A stretch of DNA of 7,996 nucleotides. It comes from a virus. Taxonomy: Duplodnaviria; Heunggongvirae; Uroviricota; Caudoviricetes. The stretch covers positions 1-7,996 of IMG/VR virus record IMGVR_UViG_2609459791_000005, one strand, 5' to 3'. Below the pieces are notes generated by a model, which worked only from the letters and a program-made list of their open reading frames with translations, made no database searches and was not told the DNA's origin. Shown here one piece after another: positions 1 through 7,996 of this stretch. Each line of letters begins with the position of its first letter. The first letter of the stretch is position 1. A program made the position numbers and the translations under genes.

Positions 1-222
1 ATGCAATCCATTAACTTCCGTACCGCGCGTGGCAACCTTTCTGAAGTGCTCAACAATGTTGAAGCCGGGGAAGAGGTTGAAATCACCCGCAGAGGCCGTG
101 AGCCAGCAGTAATTGTCAGCAAGGCTACTTTCGAAGCCTACAAAAAAGCGGCGCTGGATGCTGAATTTGCATCCCTGTTTGACACCCTGGACTCCACCAA
201 CAAGGAACTGGTTAACCGATAA
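1..222 (+). CDS. phd: Phd antitoxin (type II toxin-antitoxin, Phd/YefM family), P1 prevents-host-death protein
   Basis: 73-aa [76 protein letters not shown] matches my recollection of P1 Phd in sequence and length. Its stop overlaps the next ATG (TAATG at 220-224). The window begins at its start codon, so its promoter is not visible. Confidence 0.9.
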
Positions 223-602
223 TGAGGCATATATCACCGGAAGAACTTATTGCGCTTCATGATGCGAATATAAACCGCTACGGCGGCCTGCCGGGCATGT
301 CAGATCCGGGTAGGGCAGAGGCCATTATCGGGAGAGTTCAGGCCAGAGTTGCCTACGAAGAGATCACCGACCTTTTCGAAGTCTCCGCCACCTACCTGGT
401 GGCTACGGCGAGAGGGCATATATTCAATGATGCCAATAAGCGTACCGCGCTAAACAGTGCGCTGTTATTTCTACGCCGTAACGGGGTGCAGGTATTTGAT
501 TCACCTGAACTGGCAGACCTTACTGTAGGCGCTGCGACTGGCGAGATATCTGTATCTTCTGTCGCCGACACGTTACGTAGATTGTATGGTTCTGCGGAGT
601 AG
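222..602 (+). CDS. doc: Doc toxin (Fic-fold kinase, death on curing)
   Basis: 126-aa ORF directly coupled to phd. It contains the Fic-type motif HIFNDANKR (about 417-443). Sequence and length match recalled P1 Doc. Confidence 0.9.
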
Positions 603-606
603 ATTA

Positions 607-786
607 ATGGCACGCAAATACAACAAATTGTCCCGTGAAGCGTTAAAGATGCTTCTTGATGGCGTGAGTCGCCGCGAGGTAAAGCAATACCTGGTTGGTA
701 AGCAAATTGGAGCCAGGACTGCTATTGCTGTGTTATGCCGTCAGGAAATGGTTGTGCTTAAACAGAGAATGCCGGGCAGCAGATAA
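607..786 (+). CDS. small hypothetical protein with helix-turn-helix-like segment; possibly the first P1 post-doc gene by synteny
   Basis: ATG at 607 lies 7 nt after a GGAG (596-599) and just past the doc stop. The ORF track gives an in-frame upstream ATG at 586 that would overlap doc. The segment SREALKMLLDGVSRREVKQYL looks like an HTH. No family recognised from memory. Confidence 0.4.
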   Translation: MARKYNKLSREALKMLLDGVSRREVKQYLVGKQIGARTAIAVLCRQEMVVLKQRMPGSR

Positions 787-813
787 AGCCCAATCAGTGA
801 TGAAAGGTGTGAT

Positions 814-1857
814 GTGAAAGCCGTAATTACTCCCTTTGTACAAAAAGAGCTTGGCGTCGCCACATTCAAAGTGGATCAGGAAGTCAGAAAGCTGGTGGAG
901 GCTGGCCGTAAATTTATTATGGAGCCGGTGCCGCGTGAGTTAATCGAGCACATGGACGACGGCCTCGTTGTTTCCGAGCAAACTATGGCAACAAATGAGG
1001 CGTTGCAGCCGTTTTTTAACAGCGATGAACTGTTTCGCCGTATTGGTGGAATTGACGCGCTGGTGGCGTGGTTGCGCAGGAAAGAGGGGCAATGCCAGGC
1101 CGCAGATCGTAGCTGCTGTGACAACCATATTGTCCACGCAGAACGAGACAATAGCGCGGTGTTGTTGTGCTGGCATCACGATAACCATTACCGGATGCGT
1201 GGTTTTAATGAGCTGAAAGAAACGCTGCATAATAATCGCGTTAACTGGATACTGGATGTCGCCCGTCAGGAAATGGGGCTTTCAGATGGCCATGATTTAA
1301 GTATTCAGGAACTGTGCTGGTGGGCTTTCATGCGCAACATGATGCACCTGATGCCGGAAGAAGTTTGCCGTATATCAATAAATAAGATGAAAGCCGCAAC
1401 GCAGGATAGCGGACCTCTGAAAGAGGCGGATATTCGCCCGTATGACGATCGCGCTACAGCATATGTTCAGATGATGGAAGAACGCGCCGCGCCGATGCGT
1501 GCAAAAGTATGCCCTGTGGATGTTGACTCCGACCCTGGCATGGCGCATTTCAAAATACCAAAACTGCAATCGCTAAAATTACCTGAGTACATGGACTTTG
1601 TTGCTTCCCGTCCATGCTGTGGGTGTGGAGCGGCGGGAGCTGGCGCTCACATTACGCCTTATATCGTTCGTCATAGTCGATTATGCGCGCATGACATTTA
1701 CGCAATTCCTCTGTGCCAGTCATGCCAGCGTGATATTGAGCGTGACCGCGATAATTGGGAGAAGACGCACGGTAGGCTGGCGATGCATCAACGATTGTTC
1801 TTTGATTACGCGCTTGGAGTCGGCGCTATCACAAGTCACTCGTCGAGCGTTAGATAA
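814..1857 (+). CDS. Cys/His-rich protein with two HNH-like / DUF968-like zinc-motif units; possibly P1 PdcB by synteny
   Basis: 347-aa ORF with GTG start at 814 preceded by AAAGGTG. Motif units are [25 protein letters not shown] and [38 protein letters not shown]. Three Chi octamers lie inside the gene. The name is from recalled P1 gene order, not a search. Confidence 0.6.
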
Positions 1858-1858
1858 A

Positions 1859-1875
1859 ATTGCTCTAATGTATTG
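1859..1875 (+). promoter_or_regulatory. C1 repressor operator-like site upstream of lpa
   Basis: ATTGCTCTAATGTATTG matches 14 of 17 positions of the P1 C1 operator consensus ATTGCTCTAATAAATTT as I recall it. It overlaps the -35 of the candidate promoter below. Confidence 0.55.
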
Positions 1876-1903
1876 CTATTTCTTTAATCGAGGGTGTTAT
1901 ATT
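1873..1903 (+). promoter_or_regulatory. candidate sigma70 promoter for lpa (-35 TTGCTA, extended -10 TGtTATATT)
   Basis: -35-like TTGCTA at 1873-1878 and TG at 1895-1896 followed by TATATT at 1898-1903. The spacer is long (about 19 nt), so the exact elements are uncertain. Confidence 0.35.
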
Positions 1904-1945
1904 CCACGTTGATTAGTTGACATGGGCTAATCAGTAGGTGACAGG

Positions 1946-2398
1946 ATGTTACTTAACTGGCAGGGACGCCACTTCATGGAAATAAATCACTCACGAATAA
2001 CATCGTACGAGATTGCGGATTACATGATCCGCACTAAATCTCTTCTATCAGCGAAAGAACTCGCAGCAATTCTTGAAAAGGAATACCCGCATCTGGATGT
2101 CGATAAGCGCGATGTTTATCTGCGCTTAAAGGCTATCGCTGTGTCTAAGTATTCGTCTGTTTTGATTGATGACAGTACACGCCCACGTAGATTTCAGATC
2201 CACTCTCTGAATCCTGAATTCTTTCGCCGTAGCCGCGCTCCGCGCCGGTTTGATGAAAAACTCCAGAACGAACTCTATATGACGCAGGACGAAAAGGAAC
2301 GCCGGGAGCACCAGCCTTGGGTAATGGCGCGTCAACTTTTCAATAAGGTGGCCCGTCAGCACCGTCATTACGGTAATGCCACATCCGCACGTATCTGA
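1946..2398 (+). CDS. lpa: late promoter activator Lpa (P1 gene 10) candidate
   Basis: 150-aa ORF immediately upstream of pacA, preceded by AGGTG (1936-1940) 5 nt before the ATG and by a C1 operator-like site. Assignment is by position and known P1 gene order (gene 10 next to the pac operon); the protein sequence itself is not recalled. Confidence 0.6.
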   Translation: MLLNWQGRHFMEINHSRITSYEIADYMIRTKSLLSAKELAAILEKEYPHLDVDKRDVYLRLKAIAVSKYSSVLIDDSTRPRRFQIHSLNPEFFRRSRAPRRFDEKLQNELYMTQDEKERREHQPWVMARQLFNKVARQHRHYGNATSARI

Positions 2399-2408
2399 TT
2401 GATTGCTT

Positions 2409-2428
2409 GCCCGTTCCGGGCCTTTTGA
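2409..2428 (+). terminator. weak candidate intrinsic terminator after lpa
   Basis: GCCCG-TTC-CGGGC hairpin (2409-2421) followed by CTTTT. The stem is short, hence low confidence. Confidence 0.25.
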
Positions 2429-2458
2429 CATGTGACTTTCGTTACCCTCGCGTCAAAA
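2423..2458 (+). promoter_or_regulatory. candidate late-promoter / regulatory element upstream of pacA
   Basis: Near-palindromic TTGACATGTGAC (2425-2436) plus a flanking inverted repeat TTTTGAC(2423-2429)...GTCAAAA(2452-2458), about 50 bp upstream of the pacA start. The pac operon is known to be Lpa-dependent, but I cannot recall the late-promoter consensus with confidence. Confidence 0.25.
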
Positions 2459-2483
2459 AGAGTTTTTACGAAAGGAAGCATAA

Positions 2484-3677
2484 GTGACCTGGGACGATCA
2501 CAAGAAGAATTTTGCTCGCCTGGCGCGAGATGGTGGTTACACCATCGCACAGTATGCCGCCGAGTTTAATCTTAACCCTAATACTGCACGTCGTTATCTC
2601 CGTGCCTTCAAAGAAGACACCAGGACAGCGGACAGCCGCAAGCCAAATAAGCCAGTCAGGAAGCCACTAAAAAGCATGATCATTGATCACTCTAATGATC
2701 AACATGCAGGTGATCACATTGCGGCTGAAATAGCGGAAAAACAAAGGGTTAATGCCGTTGTCAGTGCCGCAGTCGAGAATGCGAAGCGCCAAAATAAGCG
2801 CATAAATGATCGTTCTGATGATCATGACGTGATCACCCGCGCCCACCGGACCTTACGTGATCGCCTGGAACGCGACACCCTGGATGATGATGGTGAACGC
2901 TTTGAATTCGAAGCTGGCGATTACCTGATAGATAACGTTGAAGCGCGGAAGGCCGCGCGCGCTATGTTGCGTCGGTCCGGGGCCGATGTTCTGGAAACCA
3001 CTCTTCTTGAAAAGTCTCTTTCTCATCTCCTTATGCTGGAGAACGCCAGGGATACGTGTATTCGCCTGGTGCAGGAAATGCGCGATCAGCAAAAAGACGA
3101 TGATGAAGGTACTCCGCCTGAATACCGTATCGCGAGCATGCTAAACAGCTGTTCCGCGCAGATAAGCAGCCTGATCAACACCATTTACAGCATCCGGAAT
3201 AACTATCGAAAAGAAAGCCTGGAGGCGGAAAAGCACGCTTTGTCTATGGGGCAAGCTGGCATTGTTAAGCTGGCATACGAACGAAAGCGTGAAAATAACT
3301 GGTCAGTGCTGGAAGCAGCTGAATTCATCGAGGCGCATGGCGGGAAAGTGCCGCCCCTGATGCTGGAGCAAATCAAAGCCGATCTGCGTGCTCTTAAGAC
3401 CAATACCGATGATGAGGAAAGGCAAACAGCCGTTGGTGGCCCTTCTCTTGAAGATCTGGACAAAGTTGCGCGAGAACGGGCCGCCAACCGCCGCGCCGAT
3501 GCCGCATTGTGGATTGAGCAGCGTAGGGAAGAAATCGCCGATATCGTTGATACAGGCGGTTATGGAGATGTTGATACTGAAGGTGTATCAAACGACCCAT
3601 GGCTGGAACAAGACCTGGACGAAGACGAGGAGGAAGACGAAGAAGTTACCCGCAAGCTATACGGGGATGATGATTAA
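2484..3677 (+). CDS. pacA: terminase small subunit / pac-recognition protein PacA
   Basis: 397-aa ORF with GTG start 5 nt after AAAGGAAG. N-terminus [42 protein letters not shown] is HTH-like, and the C-terminal tail is acidic ([13 protein letters not shown]). The pac hexamer clusters lie inside the gene. Length matches recalled P1 PacA. Confidence 0.9.
2677..2835 (+). other. P1-type pac packaging site: four TGATCA hexamers, spacer, then three TGATC(A/G) hexamers, each carrying a Dam GATC
   Basis: TGATCA at 2677-2682, 2684-2689, 2696-2701 and 2711-2716. TGATCG at 2807-2812, TGATCA at 2819-2824 and 2830-2835. This matches the published P1 pac architecture of 4+3 hexanucleotide elements flanking the cleavage region. 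Confidence 0.85.
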
Positions 3678-4531
3678 TGGCCAGAAGTTGCGTAACGGAT
3701 CCACGTTGGCGCGAGCTGGTGGCGCTATATCGTTATGACTGGATTGCGGCCGCTGATGTTTTGTTCGGCAAAACACCTACCTGGCAGCAGGATCTGATTA
3801 TTGAGTCTGTGCAGGAACAGGGTAGCAAGACATCTGTTTCGTCTGGTCACGGTACCGGGAAATCAGACATGACTTCTATCATGATCATGTTGTTCATAAT
3901 CATGTATCCCGGTGCCCGAGCCATTATCGTTGCGAACAAAATTCAGCAGGTAATGACCGGTATATTCAAGTACATCAAGATAAACTGGGCTACTGCCACC
4001 AGCCGTTTCCCATGGCTTGCTGATTATTTTGTTCTGACAGAAACCGCTTTCTATGAGGTTACTGGTAAAGGTGTATGGACTGTAGTACCGAAGGGCTTTC
4101 GTCTGGGAAGTGAAGAAGCTCTCGCCGGTGAACACGCAGATCATCTTCTGTATATTATCGATGAAGCCTCCGGTGTCAGTGATAGAGCTTTCGGTATCAT
4201 CACCGGTGCTCTTACCGGACAGGATAACCGCATCTTATTACTGTCACAGCCTACACGCCCAAGCCAACGTCTAAGGAGGCTGCCAATATGGCTACTATCC
4301 CTACCCCAACTCATCCTGAATTTATCTGCCGCTTTTACTCCTGCCAAAAACGTCACTATCACTTCGTTATTGCACCAACAGAAGATGAGGCCCGCTCTCA
4401 GCTTCCTGACGCCCCATGTATTTTCTCTGCCCGTTTTTCCACTGATTCACGCAATTCTCTCAGTTACTGGTGCCTCCCTGTTAACGCTTCTGCTCAGGAG
4501 GGACTATGAGAACGTCATTAGTCACCCGTGA
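3677..4531 (+). CDS. pacB: terminase large subunit PacB, N-terminal ATPase portion only (truncated; 3' tail of the ORF is not protein-like)
   Basis: Start overlaps the pacA stop (TAATG at 3675-3679). Walker A GHGTGKS at about 3845-3865 and Walker [10 protein letters not shown] at about 4145-4171. Terminase-like sequence runs to QPTRPS (about 4264); the frame then reads a Leu/Ser/Pro-rich string to the stop at 4531. Confidence 0.6.
4288..4509 (+). CDS. icd: Icd-like small protein (host cell-division inhibitor family of immI-type antirepressor operons)
   Basis: 73-aa ORF preceded by TAAGGAGG (4270-4277). Its stop overlaps the next ATG as ATGA (4506-4509). The segment [28 protein letters not shown] resembles Icd-like proteins; length matches recalled P1 Icd (73 aa). 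Confidence 0.5.
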
Positions 4532-5624
4532 AGAGATGATCGAGGCAATTGAACAGCACATTGCCTGTATCAGTACCAGGGATATACCAGGCGTTATTGC
4601 CAACTACTTCATGATCACCAAACAACTTTACCGGAGAAAGGACAAGAACTCGGTTCACCGTATCCTGTTGTCTGATATCCGCGAATACCTGCTCGAACAG
4701 GGTCATCTGAATTACGCAACCGTCGCAGCCGAAGCACGCAAGGAGGCACACAGAATGAAAGCAACTAACGTTAAATCAGAAAAAATTCATGCACCTTCAG
4801 TTCAGGAATCGGAGCTGGTGGTTGTTCAGAATCAGTCTGATGAAATTCCCGTTCTGGAATGGCAGGGAGCGCGTGTAGTGACAACCGAGACTCTTGCTAG
4901 AGGGTATGGGACAGAAACAATCCGTATTCGCCAAAATCATCATGAGAACAAAGTACGCTTTGTTGAAGGGAAGCACTTTTTCAAAGTTGAAGGAGAATCA
5001 TTGCGCGAGTTGAAGCACAGAGTAGCTTTAAACTACTCTGTAAAAATTGCTCGCAATGTTCGCTCACTCACCCTCTGGACAGAACGCGGCGCAGCCCGCC
5101 ACGCTAAAATGCTCGAAACCGATCAGGCATGGGCATTCTTTGAAAAACTGGAAGACAGCTACTTCCGACAAAAAGAACAGCAACCGGTCGCAATCCCCCA
5201 GACGATTCCAGAAGCTCTGCGCCTGGCTGCCGAGTTAGCTGAACAAAAGCAACTTCTGGAACAGAAAGCCCACCAGCTAAATCAGCAGCTGGTGGCCGCC
5301 GCTTCTAAAGTCGATTTTGCCGACCGGGTATCAGTAGCTAAAGGGATCCTGATTGGGAATTTTGCAAAGGTCGTTGGACTTAAACAAAATGCGCTGTTTG
5401 CCTGGTTACGGGAGAACGGCATTCTGATAGCGTCCGGAGGCCGTAAAAATGTACCGTTCCAGCAGTACATCAACGCGGGGTATTTCACGGTGAAAGAAGT
5501 GGTGCTGGATGATGAAGATGGCTACCAGATACGGTTGACGCCTCAATTAACGGGTAAAGGCCAGCAGTGGTTGACGCGTAAACTGCTCGATGCTGGTTTG
5601 TTAAAACCGGTGGCGGCTGAATAA
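4506..5624 (+). CDS. ant: phage antirepressor Ant (ORF6N-like domain plus KilAC-like C-terminal domain); nested in-frame second start at 4755 (Ant2-like)
   Basis: 372-aa ORF with AGGAGG at 4495-4500. ORF6N-like stretch [47 protein letters not shown] and KilAC-like stretch [58 protein letters not shown]. An internal in-frame ATG at 4755 follows AGGAGG at 4741-4746. Confidence 0.7.
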
Positions 5625-5631
5625 TGGAAGA

Positions 5632-5661
5632 ATGCCCGGTTGATGCCGGGCATAATTTATT
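5632..5661. terminator. bidirectional intrinsic terminator between convergent ant and c1
   Basis: Perfect 8-bp stem ATGCCCGG / CCGGGCAT (5632-5639 and 5646-5653) with 6-nt loop, T-rich on both flanks. It sits 8 nt after the ant stop and directly after the c1 stop. Confidence 0.6.
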
Positions 5662-6508
5662 GCGCGCTTTCGGGGTTGTCGTTTACTGGCTGCCCCTTCT
5701 TGGTTTTACGGCTGCGCGTAACTGATGCGGCTGACTTAACCTTTTTCTCTTCGCGAGTGATGGCAATTTGTTTTTTTACATTTTCAATATCTGCCAGGCG
5801 ATATATTTTTGCTTGCGGCCAGCGGCCGCAGATGATCGGTTCTATGGAGTCATAAAGGCTAAATTTTGCTTTTTCGAATTCACCGTTGATGATAATTCCA
5901 TCACGGAGAGTTTCATCGCAGATAAACACGCCACACAGTGGCACATGGTAACTAACTGATTTACCATCATTGTAGTTAGGGCTACTGGAAATGTAGTGGA
6001 CGCGCAGCATTGTTTCGCTAAAGCCGTGTACGCGCATACGGAATTTTTCATCCTCCGGGTACTGCTTCATTAGCTCTTTTGTTGCTTCCAGGTTCTCTAT
6101 GTATTTCGCACTGTGCTCATTGATCCCCGCGCTTTTTTGGATGCGAATGTCCTTATCAATCAGATGAATAATGCGGCCAGCGGTCATGTTGACGCTGTTC
6201 ACAGCTTCTGTCTGATAAGTTGTAACCTTACGCACACCGCGAAGGATGTTAGGCACTGGATATAAAATAGTCTTTGGGATATTGAGGTCTGGGTACTGTT
6301 CCAGTTCCCGCGCCATTAAAGTCCATTTATCAATTTCAGCCTGAATGCTGTCAGTTTCTTTGAACGGTAGAACGACAACCGGGCGTACAGGACGACCGTC
6401 GCTGGCTGTATCAACGTGTTGGGCGCGTGCAACAGCTTTTTTTAGAAAGAGATCCCTGAAGCTGACGAACTCCTGGTACAGTTGTTCGCCGTAGACATAA
6501 TTTATCAT
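5657..6508 (-). CDS. c1: C1 master repressor of lysogeny (immC)
   Basis: 283-aa ORF MINYVYGEQLYQEFVSFRDLFLKK... matches recalled P1 C1 in sequence and length. Strong SD GGAGGAGG precedes the ATG on the minus strand. Confidence 0.9.
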   Translation of the reverse strand: MINYVYGEQLYQEFVSFRDLFLKKAVARAQHVDTASDGRPVRPVVVLPFKETDSIQAEIDKWTLMARELEQYPDLNIPKTILYPVPNILRGVRKVTTYQTEAVNSVNMTAGRIIHLIDKDIRIQKSAGINEHSAKYIENLEATKELMKQYPEDEKFRMRVHGFSETMLRVHYISSSPNYNDGKSVSYHVPLCGVFICDETLRDGIIINGEFEKAKFSLYDSIEPIICGRWPQAKIYRLADIENVKKQIAITREEKKVKSAASVTRSRKTKKGQPVNDNPESAQ

Positions 6509-6602
6509 TGATCCTCCTCCAGAATTGACATGGTCAATAACGCCCGGCTGAGAAAACCGGTCATTACTGACCTATATTATAGAGGGATCAAACGAAAATA
6601 AT

Positions 6603-6619
6603 AGATTTATTAGTGCATT
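6603..6619 (-). promoter_or_regulatory. C1 operator-like site (Op99e-like) overlapping the c1 promoter, between coi and c1
   Basis: Minus strand reads AATGCACTAATAAATCT, 14 of 17 matches to ATTGCTCTAATAAATTT. A TATAAT hexamer lies downstream on the minus strand at plus coordinates 6576-6581, consistent with an autoregulated promoter. Confidence 0.5.
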
Positions 6620-6828
6620 TATTGTGAGTCTAACTGGTTAGTTGCCATGAGATATTCGATTGTGTCAGTGAGGTCATCCAGGTCGTCTTGGGTGATGCGG
6701 TACTCCTGATTGGATATCTTTGAGTAGTGTTCAGCAATGGCGCGGGCTGCGTCGGTTTCGGCAGGGTCTACAGATAAAGCGTTAGAGCAATGTCTAACGT
6801 CGTCGATGGTTGGTTGAATGAAAGCCAT
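6619..6828 (-). CDS. coi: Coi, C1 inactivator
   Basis: 69-aa acidic ORF immediately upstream of c1 on the same strand. Position and length match recalled P1 coi. Confidence 0.8.
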   Translation of the reverse strand: MAFIQPTIDDVRHCSNALSVDPAETDAARAIAEHYSKISNQEYRITQDDLDDLTDTIEYLMATNQLDSQ

Positions 6829-6947
6829 AATTATGCCTCACTGTATTGACAACACAGAGCCTGAAGCTCTGACCTACTGTTTCACCCATGATCCATGCTG
6901 GGGTAATCTAACAACGTTGCGCTGTGTGTAAGATGAGCAATGCATAG

Positions 6948-7996
<1,049 letters not shown>

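Follow-up and report, generated by a model that had tools for sequence, protein, structure and literature searches.

A 1,212-bp deletion joins truncated pacB to the icd-ant genes of a second immI-type module in a P1-like phage-plasmid derivative

How an immI-type antirepressor unit came to lie directly against a pacB gene that breaks off before its 3′ half, between the packaging operon and the repressor gene c1, and what this placement would mean for its control, are the questions raised by the stretch of DNA analysed here (7,996 bp in all, hereafter the window). In P1, the late promoters are activated by Lpa, and translation of icd is required for the expression of ant. C1 represses Plpa at Olpa, and pairing of the c4 RNA at a2 and b2 blocks icd translation (P1 record annotation; PMC8198154). 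A preliminary description took the unit in the window for a cassette that had replaced the 3′ half of pacB, in an arrangement it believed undescribed, and we examine below where the unit comes from, what was lost beside it, and what may still govern it.

Mapping of open reading frames and family searches gave the window a P1-type backbone, in which the order characteristic of RCS47-type elements, phd-doc-pdcA-pdcB-lpa-pacA-pacB-(immI-2)-c1-coi, is preserved with at least 98% DNA identity and the IS5 copy occupies the same position as in RCS47. Window positions 2419-2486 are 100% identical to positions 90464-90531 of P1 (NC_005856), the span holding the annotated LPpac. The features are as follows:

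1-222, plus strand: phd
222-602, plus strand: doc
586-786, plus strand: pdcA
814-1857, plus strand: pdcB
1859-1875, plus strand: C1 operator Olpa (formerly Op94) upstream of lpa, with 3 mismatches to the operator consensus and identical to the annotated P1 Olpa
1946-2398, plus strand: lpa, late-promoter activator, 150 aa, the annotated lpa of pDC71-1 and RCS47, with Pfam BPP1_LPA on the identical gene
2430-2448, plus strand: late promoter LPpac, placed according to the annotation of P1
2484-3677, plus strand: pacA, intact, 397 aa
3677-4264, plus strand: 5′ fragment of pacB, codons 1-196 of 494, collinear with pDC71-1 and RCS47 up to 4264
3677-4531, plus strand: open reading frame that begins as pacB (the PacB′ fusion ORF)
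4264-4265, no strand: deletion junction, with 1,212 bp absent relative to pDC71-1 (3666-4877 of locus L001) and a single C as overlap
4265-4531, plus strand: last 88 aa of the PacB′ fusion ORF, read out of frame and spanning the icd ribosome-binding site (RBS), the whole of icd and the ant1 start
4269-4276, plus strand: b2-type c4 RNA target GTCTAAGG, overlapping the icd Shine-Dalgarno (SD) sequence, complementary to the b′ loop CCUUGGAC of the pDC71-1 c4 RNA and at the position of the annotated P1 b2
4272-4279: icd SD TAAGGAGG, 8 nt before the ATG at 4288
4288-4509, plus strand: icd-like gene, 73 aa (NF033153, PHROG 1426, alignment to P1 Icd)
4506-5624, plus strand: ant1-like antirepressor gene, 372 aa (Pfam ORF6N and ANT/KilAC, PHROG 63, alignment to P1 Ant1)
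4755-5624, plus strand: nested ant2-like frame, 289 aa, starting at M84 (ATG at 4755) behind the SD AAGGAGG at 4740-4746, the same codon as in P1 ant2
5632-5653, no strand: hairpin between the convergent ant and c1, with a stem of 9 bp, 6 of them GC, and on the plus strand a T-rich tail
5657-6508, minus strand: c1 repressor gene, intact, 283 aa (NF041318 equivalog, 608.6 bits against a cut-off of 500)
6619-6828, minus strand: coi
6945-7996, plus strand: IS5 copy in the imcA region, at the same insertion place as in RCS47, forming the right bracket of the P1 segment

The cassette itself is much as the preliminary description had it, with the pacB breakpoint followed by a strong SD, a 73-aa Icd-like ORF and a 372-aa ORF6N and KilAC antirepressor, and its family membership is borne out by HMM search. 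The 73-aa ORF passes the NCBIfam model NF033153 ‘phage_ICD_like’ (41.3 bits, cut-off 25), matches PHROG 1426 (2e-43), and is 79% identical to P1 Icd. The 372-aa ORF matches Pfam ORF6N (2e-19) and ANT/KilAC (1.2e-30, or about 1e-30) as well as PHROG 63 ‘anti-repressor Ant’ (4e-129), and along its entire length shares 55% identity with P1 Ant1. Pfam recognised neither Icd nor PacB, for which NCBIfam and PHROGs were needed. The ATG of ant overlaps the stop codon of icd (ATGA, 4506-4509), and the P1-type nested Ant2 start is kept at an internal ATG, codon 84, behind its own SD; a 289-aa form of Ant is annotated within the same 90% protein cluster. The cassette is descended from an immI-type module and would act in the manner of P1 immI; it is an icd-ant1/ant2 unit of the kind the preliminary description had named, here abutting truncated pacB. 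On its right, the hairpin starts 7 nt after the ant stop codon (not 8, as first counted) and ends 3 nt before the stop codon of c1 (5657-5659); that it is shared with the convergent c1 holds as described, and it is likely a bidirectional terminator from its position and structure.

The reading frames of icd and ant have both stayed intact, and neither shows any sign of decay. Relative to pDC71-1, ant differs at 14 synonymous and 7 non-synonymous positions, a divergence that for the most part probably predates the deletion described below; a dN/dS-type count was set aside as a test of relaxed selection, there being too few differences and most of them probably pre-deletion. Icd in the window carries W14C relative to most relatives. 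Residues 12-51 of P1 Icd form the core needed for activity, so that a change within it could equally mean attenuation. As a lineage-specific attenuating change, W14C was discarded as not diagnostic, the same change being present in an E. albertii variant.

Homology to pacB ends at window position 4264, exactly at codon 196 of 494, by pairwise BLAST and PHROG comparison alike. PHROG 5902 and PHROG 2 (terminase large subunit) match only residues 2-196 of PacB′, and the PHROG search gave no family match to the fusion ORF beyond residue 196. The product therefore falls short of full-length PacB, which has 494 aa in both RCS47 and P1: it retains the Walker A motif (GHGTGKS) and a Walker B-like motif (LLYIIDEAS) and has lost 60% of the protein. 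The missing residues, 197-494, probably include the nuclease part, and with this loss of PacB the element would be unable to cut pac or package DNA.

Whether the cassette was inserted here or had stood here all along was decided by its relatives. Megablast of window positions 3600-5900 (2,301 bp) against PLSDB plasmids and INPHARED phages found matches in 815 plasmids and 29 phage records. Coverage of at least 80% of the region, with pacB intact, is seen in at least 237 PLSDB plasmids and in 4 phage records. Records that cover the whole query, among them at least 237 plasmids and the phages RCS47, JL22 and vB_EcoM-673R5, always do so in two or more pieces spanning about 3,512 bp, as against 2,301 in the window. 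The order in the annotated loci of pDC71-1 (L001) and RCS47 (L002) is pacA, pacB (494 aa), a 338-nt spacer, icd, ant and c1. The same site with the same icd, ant, terminator and c1 as in the window is found in RCS47 (FO818745), JL22, vB_EcoM-673R5, pDC71-1 and pTZ20_1P, the window being 98-99% identical in DNA to plasmids of the pDC71-1 type and 88-97% to RCS47. In RCS47, JL22 and vB_EcoM-673R5 this arrangement of pacB, immI module and c1 is annotated in the records themselves, and the presence of ant between pacB and c1 has been noted in print for RCS47 (Venturini et al., 2019; PMC6906374). The placement of an antirepressor gene between the pac operon and c1 is thus already known and common, and the claim that it was undescribed does not stand.

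The proposal that recombination with an immI donor locus brought the cassette into pacB at the expense of the gene's 3′ half draws on two correct observations, that the cassette does abut the pacB breakpoint and that immI of P1 lies about 43 kb from pac, far away as the preliminary description stated. Yet hundreds of relatives carry a full pacB together with the cassette in the same place and have identical sequence on its right-hand side up to c1, the 24 nt upstream of icd in the window are identical to those of the relatives, and the arrangement is published; replacement by insertion accordingly appears exceedingly improbable. The right-hand boundary is as close as had been said, but only because the module normally ends there and nothing has disturbed this end. 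On the left, since the 24 nt upstream of icd agree with the relatives, the breakpoint is the end of a deletion and not of an insertion.

What took place instead can be read from a comparison with pDC71-1. In pairwise BLAST, window positions 600-4264 correspond to 1-3665 of L001, and 4264-6947 to 4877-7560, so that the absence of the 1,212 bp at L001 3666-4877 is the sole structural difference between the two. The junction reads ACGCCCAAGC up to the breakpoint and CAACGTCTAAGGAGG beyond it, with one C common to both parental flanks, and the right end of the deletion falls 24 nt before the icd ATG and 4 nt upstream of b2 and the icd RBS. A repeat-mediated mechanism finds no support, as only 1 nt is common to the ends, a nearby CCAA present in both flanks is out of register, and there is no flanking repeat; the microhomology sought at the left junction likewise comes down to that 1-nt overlap. 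The alignments show one illegitimate 1,212-bp deletion, which fused codon 196 of pacB to the RBS region of the cassette. The searches brought up no undeleted parent above roughly 98-99% identity, and we therefore infer the deletion from relatives rather than from a direct ancestor. The allele appears to be an ordinary loss-of-function lesion, undescribed as far as the searches show.

Besides residues 197-494 of PacB, the deletion removed a C1 operator, a promoter region, an a1b1/IsrK-like leader, c4 and a2, all of which the module of RCS47-type elements has and the window lacks. In the intact relatives, the 338-nt spacer between pacB and icd holds the C1 operator, the leader and the c4 RNA. 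Rfam searches of this spacer in pDC71-1 and RCS47 matched the C4 antisense RNA (RF01695, 76 and 75 bits) and isrK (RF01394, 61 and 60 bits), and the same scan of the window returned nothing, neither C4 nor isrK, even at E≤1. The operator of pDC71-1, TTTGCTCTAATAAATTG, begins 4 nt after the pacB stop codon (L001 4566-4582) and has 2 mismatches to the 17-bp consensus; an operator scan of the window found none near icd, its only matches being at 1859 (Olpa) and 6603 (Oc1, between c1 and coi). The spacer of the relatives is collinear with annotated P1 immI, in the order Oc4, P2c4/P1c4, a1, b1, c4, a2, b2 and icd. The leader of P1 itself matches the Rfam family c4-a1b1 (RF03163), with isrK below threshold, and for this reason the ‘isrK’ match of the relatives is probably a homologue of the a1b1 leader.

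In pDC71-1, a′ of the c4 RNA (GGCCAA) is matched by a1 (TTGGCC) and a2 (TTGGTC), while the counterpart of b′ (CCUUGGAC) is GTCTAAGG at both b1 and b2; in RCS47, a′ (GUCUCAA) is matched by TTGAGAC, which occurs twice, and b′ (CCUUUGAC) by GTCAAAGG, also present twice. The c4 loops and the four targets a1, b1, a2 and b2 thus covary between the pDC71-1 type and the RCS47 type, an indication that the c4-type switch is functional where the module is intact. Of these targets the window retains only b2, within the icd SD region, and a2 (TTGGTC in pDC71-1) is deleted; of the features that define immI, the c4 gene and the operator/promoter (Oc4/Op51 type) have no counterpart in it.

RCS47, JL22 and vB_EcoM-673R5 also keep the canonical c4-icd-ant1/ant2 at its usual site, 95-96% identical to P1, which makes the module between pacB and c1 a second immI paralogue. 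Such a second module normally runs from C1 operator, promoter region and a1b1/IsrK-like leader through c4, a2 and b2 to icd, ant1/ant2 and the terminator. It shows about 76% identity to P1 immI in icd and in the 5′ and 3′ parts of ant, and the ORF6N middle of its Ant resembles roi/antB of Stx phages. The cassette in the window accordingly shares with the canonical immI of P1 and P7 (Oc4-P2c4/P1c4-a1b1-c4-a2b2-icd-ant1/ant2) a 73-aa Icd that is 79% identical, the overlap of ant start and icd stop, the nested Ant1/Ant2 (M84), a homologous N-terminal 85 aa and KilAC C-terminus of Ant, and a b2-type target over the icd RBS. It differs from it in genomic position, in the middle of Ant (an ORF6N domain, Roi/AntB-like), in the c4 specificity of the parent module, and in lacking the control region upstream of b2. 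A more distant likeness is to isrK-orf45-anrP of Salmonella Gifsy-1 (Hershko-Shalev et al., 2016; PMC4825925), in that the isrK match of the relatives (60-61 bits, with its own terminator) precedes a small ORF and an antirepressor gene and in that, in both systems, expression of the antirepressor is controlled by whether the small ORF is translated. The window, however, is without an isrK match, the relatives have c4 in addition, and the downstream target is AntQ in Gifsy-1 whereas it is C1 in P1-like elements. Defective P1 plasmids of the pJIE250-3 type (Venturini et al., 2019) similarly lost lytic or packaging functions through deletions and the activity of insertion sequences and, persisting as plasmids, kept c1 and phd-doc; the lesion in the window differs in affecting the 3′ part of pacB and the control region of the second immI.

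Could the junction be an artefact of assembly, a chimeric contig or a collapsed repeat? It is missing from PLSDB, 5,426 complete E. coli genomes, GTDB representative genomes, IMG/VR and JGI metagenomes when searched with a 161-bp megablast query and an exact 30-nt pattern, and among INPHARED phages no match of the 2,301-bp region runs contiguously across it. An exact-protein look-up, however, found the 284-aa PacB′ fusion protein on 16 contigs (NCBI isolates, ENA and Logan), including the E. coli isolates 2-474-04_S1_C2 and 2-156-04_S1_C3 (KDV91267, KDY99630; assembly GCA_000704645.1 for 2-156-04_S1_C3) and three ENA metagenome assemblies, with both SPAdes and MEGAHIT among the assemblers. Five contigs that were checked are 99.96-100% identical to the window in DNA across the junction, one of them, JNRK01000040.1, being 100% identical over all 7,996 bp, and a 1-nt overlap offers no repeat to collapse. 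The occurrence of the fusion protein in different projects and with different assemblers rules out misassembly, so the chimeric assembly that the preliminary description had raised against its own reading is hardly conceivable as the origin of the junction. An IS5 copy stands on either side of the P1 segment, the two sharing no more than about 94% identity. To its left, JNRK01000040.1 has a ttrBCA-metQ block 100% identical to E. coli plasmid DNA, whereas an ENA contig has other DNA there, with P1 cra-cre continuing on the right. Spread over 16 contigs with differing left contexts, the allele is old enough to have moved between contexts.

What may the deletion have done to the expression of icd and ant? 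Bereft of their own promoter and of c4 in cis, the two genes would be transcribed only as the tail of a pacA-pacB′ transcript from the Lpa-dependent LPpac, leaving Olpa as the one remaining and indirect route by which C1 would control this transcript. As C1 would repress lpa through Olpa and so keep LPpac silent, and c1 is intact, the cassette is expected to be off at rest. Were late transcription turned on, ribosomes translating the PacB′ frame would cross b2, icd and the ant1 start (to 4531), and would probably override both c4 acting in trans and Rho-dependent polarity.

From this it might be argued that the deletion was selected as a rewiring, placing Icd and Ant under a late promoter, blind to c4 and free of direct C1 control, possibly as a feed-forward lock on C1 inactivation, or so that a superinfecting P1-like phage that supplies or derepresses Lpa would cause the antirepressor and the FtsZ inhibitor to be expressed; C1 would then be inactivated irreversibly, a co-resident prophage might be induced, or Icd would bring about an abortive division block. 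That both ORFs have been preserved with their SDs, along with the Ant2 start and the terminator, would fit such a role, as would a breakpoint that spares the icd RBS by 4 nt, the persistence of the allele in 16 contigs and two flanking contexts, and the retention of lpa, Olpa, LPpac and c1. The lineage, though, is rare and nearly clonal (at least 99.96% identity), the same event kills pacB, the IS5-bracketed segment is typical of decay, and W14C in the 12-51 region of Icd could just as well signify attenuation, which together make selection for this wiring unlikely. It might alternatively be supposed that the fusion created or exposed a constitutive promoter within pacB′ and that continuous Ant keeps C1 inactive, with the c4 brake and the operator both lost. 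There are indeed two weak sigma-70-like matches (9 of 12 positions) inside pacB′, at 4129-4158 and 4173-4200, and the P1 record has a predicted PpacB promoter; from either, low constitutive transcription of icd-ant could arise. A consensus scan, however, found 7 such matches near the junction against 5.3 ± 2.2 expected, a chance level, those in pacB′ also occur in relatives with intact pacB, and constitutive Icd was toxic in P1 studies, so that counter-selection would be expected unless W14C inactivates Icd; a constitutive source of Ant is for these reasons quite improbable. It is highly probable, in our judgement, that the window belongs to a derivative of an E. coli RCS47-type P1-like phage-plasmid made defective by the 1,212-bp deletion, and that it reflects the decay of a prophage-plasmid and no designed circuit.

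As a rare deletion allele expected to inactivate packaging, the locus has little discovery value. It does offer a clean example of how a phage-plasmid may lose its phage functions and yet hold on to c1, phd-doc and an antirepressor gene left orphaned, which is relevant to tools that class phage-plasmids as intact or defective. The presence of two immI modules per RCS47-type element and the covariation of c4 loops with their targets point to distinct specificities, and these could bear on heteroimmunity among co-circulating P1-like plasmids.

Two smaller observations concern the sequence and its annotation. The three Chi octamers reported for the cassette, at 4814 and 5288 on the plus strand and 5270 on the minus strand, were confirmed, and as the window as a whole contains 8 of them against 0.25 expected by chance, their density characterises the backbone rather than the cassette, in line with the earlier remark that the surrounding DNA has them too. 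Gene callers label the PacB′ read-through ORF a ‘cell division repressor domain protein’ and often omit icd.

Besides the canonical immI module, RCS47-type phage-plasmids carry a second one between pacB and c1, and in the latter the leader upstream of c4 scores above threshold with the Rfam model of isrK, the Gifsy-1 sRNA.

immI modules and matches to the Rfam isrK model
L001 (pDC71-1 region), 4566-4900: immI module
L002 (RCS47 region), 4566-4921: immI module
RCS47 record, 52685-53543: immI module
L001, 4657-4734: isrK-model match
L002, 4657-4735: isrK-model match
L009 (P1 immI region), 331-412: isrK-model match, below threshold

P1's own a1b1 leader reaches 35 bits with this model, below threshold, and it and IsrK are probably homologous. 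Between the second modules of pDC71-1 and RCS47, the c4 loops covary with their a1, b1, a2 and b2 targets, and P1 differs from both; this implies the existence of several c4 specificities, which could matter for heteroimmunity.

The antirepressor gene of the same module appears to be composite. Ant of the window/pDC71-1 type is 88% identical overall to that of RCS47, and the flanks of its ORF6N segment are 94-99% identical, but between them the segment itself (window 4915-5061 versus L002 5549-5692) is too divergent for BLASTN to return any alignment. This pattern points to a mosaic, in which a stretch within ant would have been exchanged; the ORF6N segment resembles roi/antB of Stx phages. 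In the neighboring icd-like gene, codon 14 (window 4327-4329) encodes Cys; the residue there is Trp in P1, RCS47, and almost every cluster member. This W14C change, also present in an Escherichia albertii variant, falls inside the 12-51 core that P1 Icd requires for division inhibition, and the exact Icd sequence of the window is recorded on only two contigs. Most gene callers leave out the real icd ORF, overlapped as it is by the PacB' read-through ORF (window 3677-4531), which bears the public name "putative cell division repressor domain protein" (KDV91267, KDY99630); both the naming and the lost icd call are annotation artefacts produced by the 1,212-bp deletion.

The 7-kb P1 segment from phd to coi has one IS5 on each side, the two in direct orientation and with a mutual identity of only ~94%.

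IS5 copies, direct orientation
window, 6945-7996: IS5
L004 (contig with the same P1 segment), 5066-6265 and 13269-14396: IS5
L003 (contig with the same P1 segment), 567-1767 and 8812-10010: IS5

The left IS5 adjoins the phd promoter, at a contact point shifted by 40 nt between two contigs, and beyond it lies either a ttrBCA-metQ block, which matches E. coli plasmids at 100% identity, or other DNA. The bracketed segment looks like a remnant, IS5-mobilized or IS5-eroded. The IS5 in the imcA region (end at window 6945; compare L001 7560-7779), like its counterpart in RCS47, cuts coi-c1 off from the upstream operators Oc1d and Oc1e and from the P1coi promoter, so that in the window only Oc1ab/Pc1-proximal control is left to c1 and coi.

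The 8-kb window holds eight Chi octamers where chance would predict 0.25; six lie on the plus strand.

Chi octamers in the window
891, 1059, 1316, 3715, 4814, 5288, plus strand: Chi
3996, 5270, minus strand: Chi

Inside ant, the pair at 5270-5295 is arranged as an inverted Chi-Chi repeat, which gives rise to a 10-bp hairpin.
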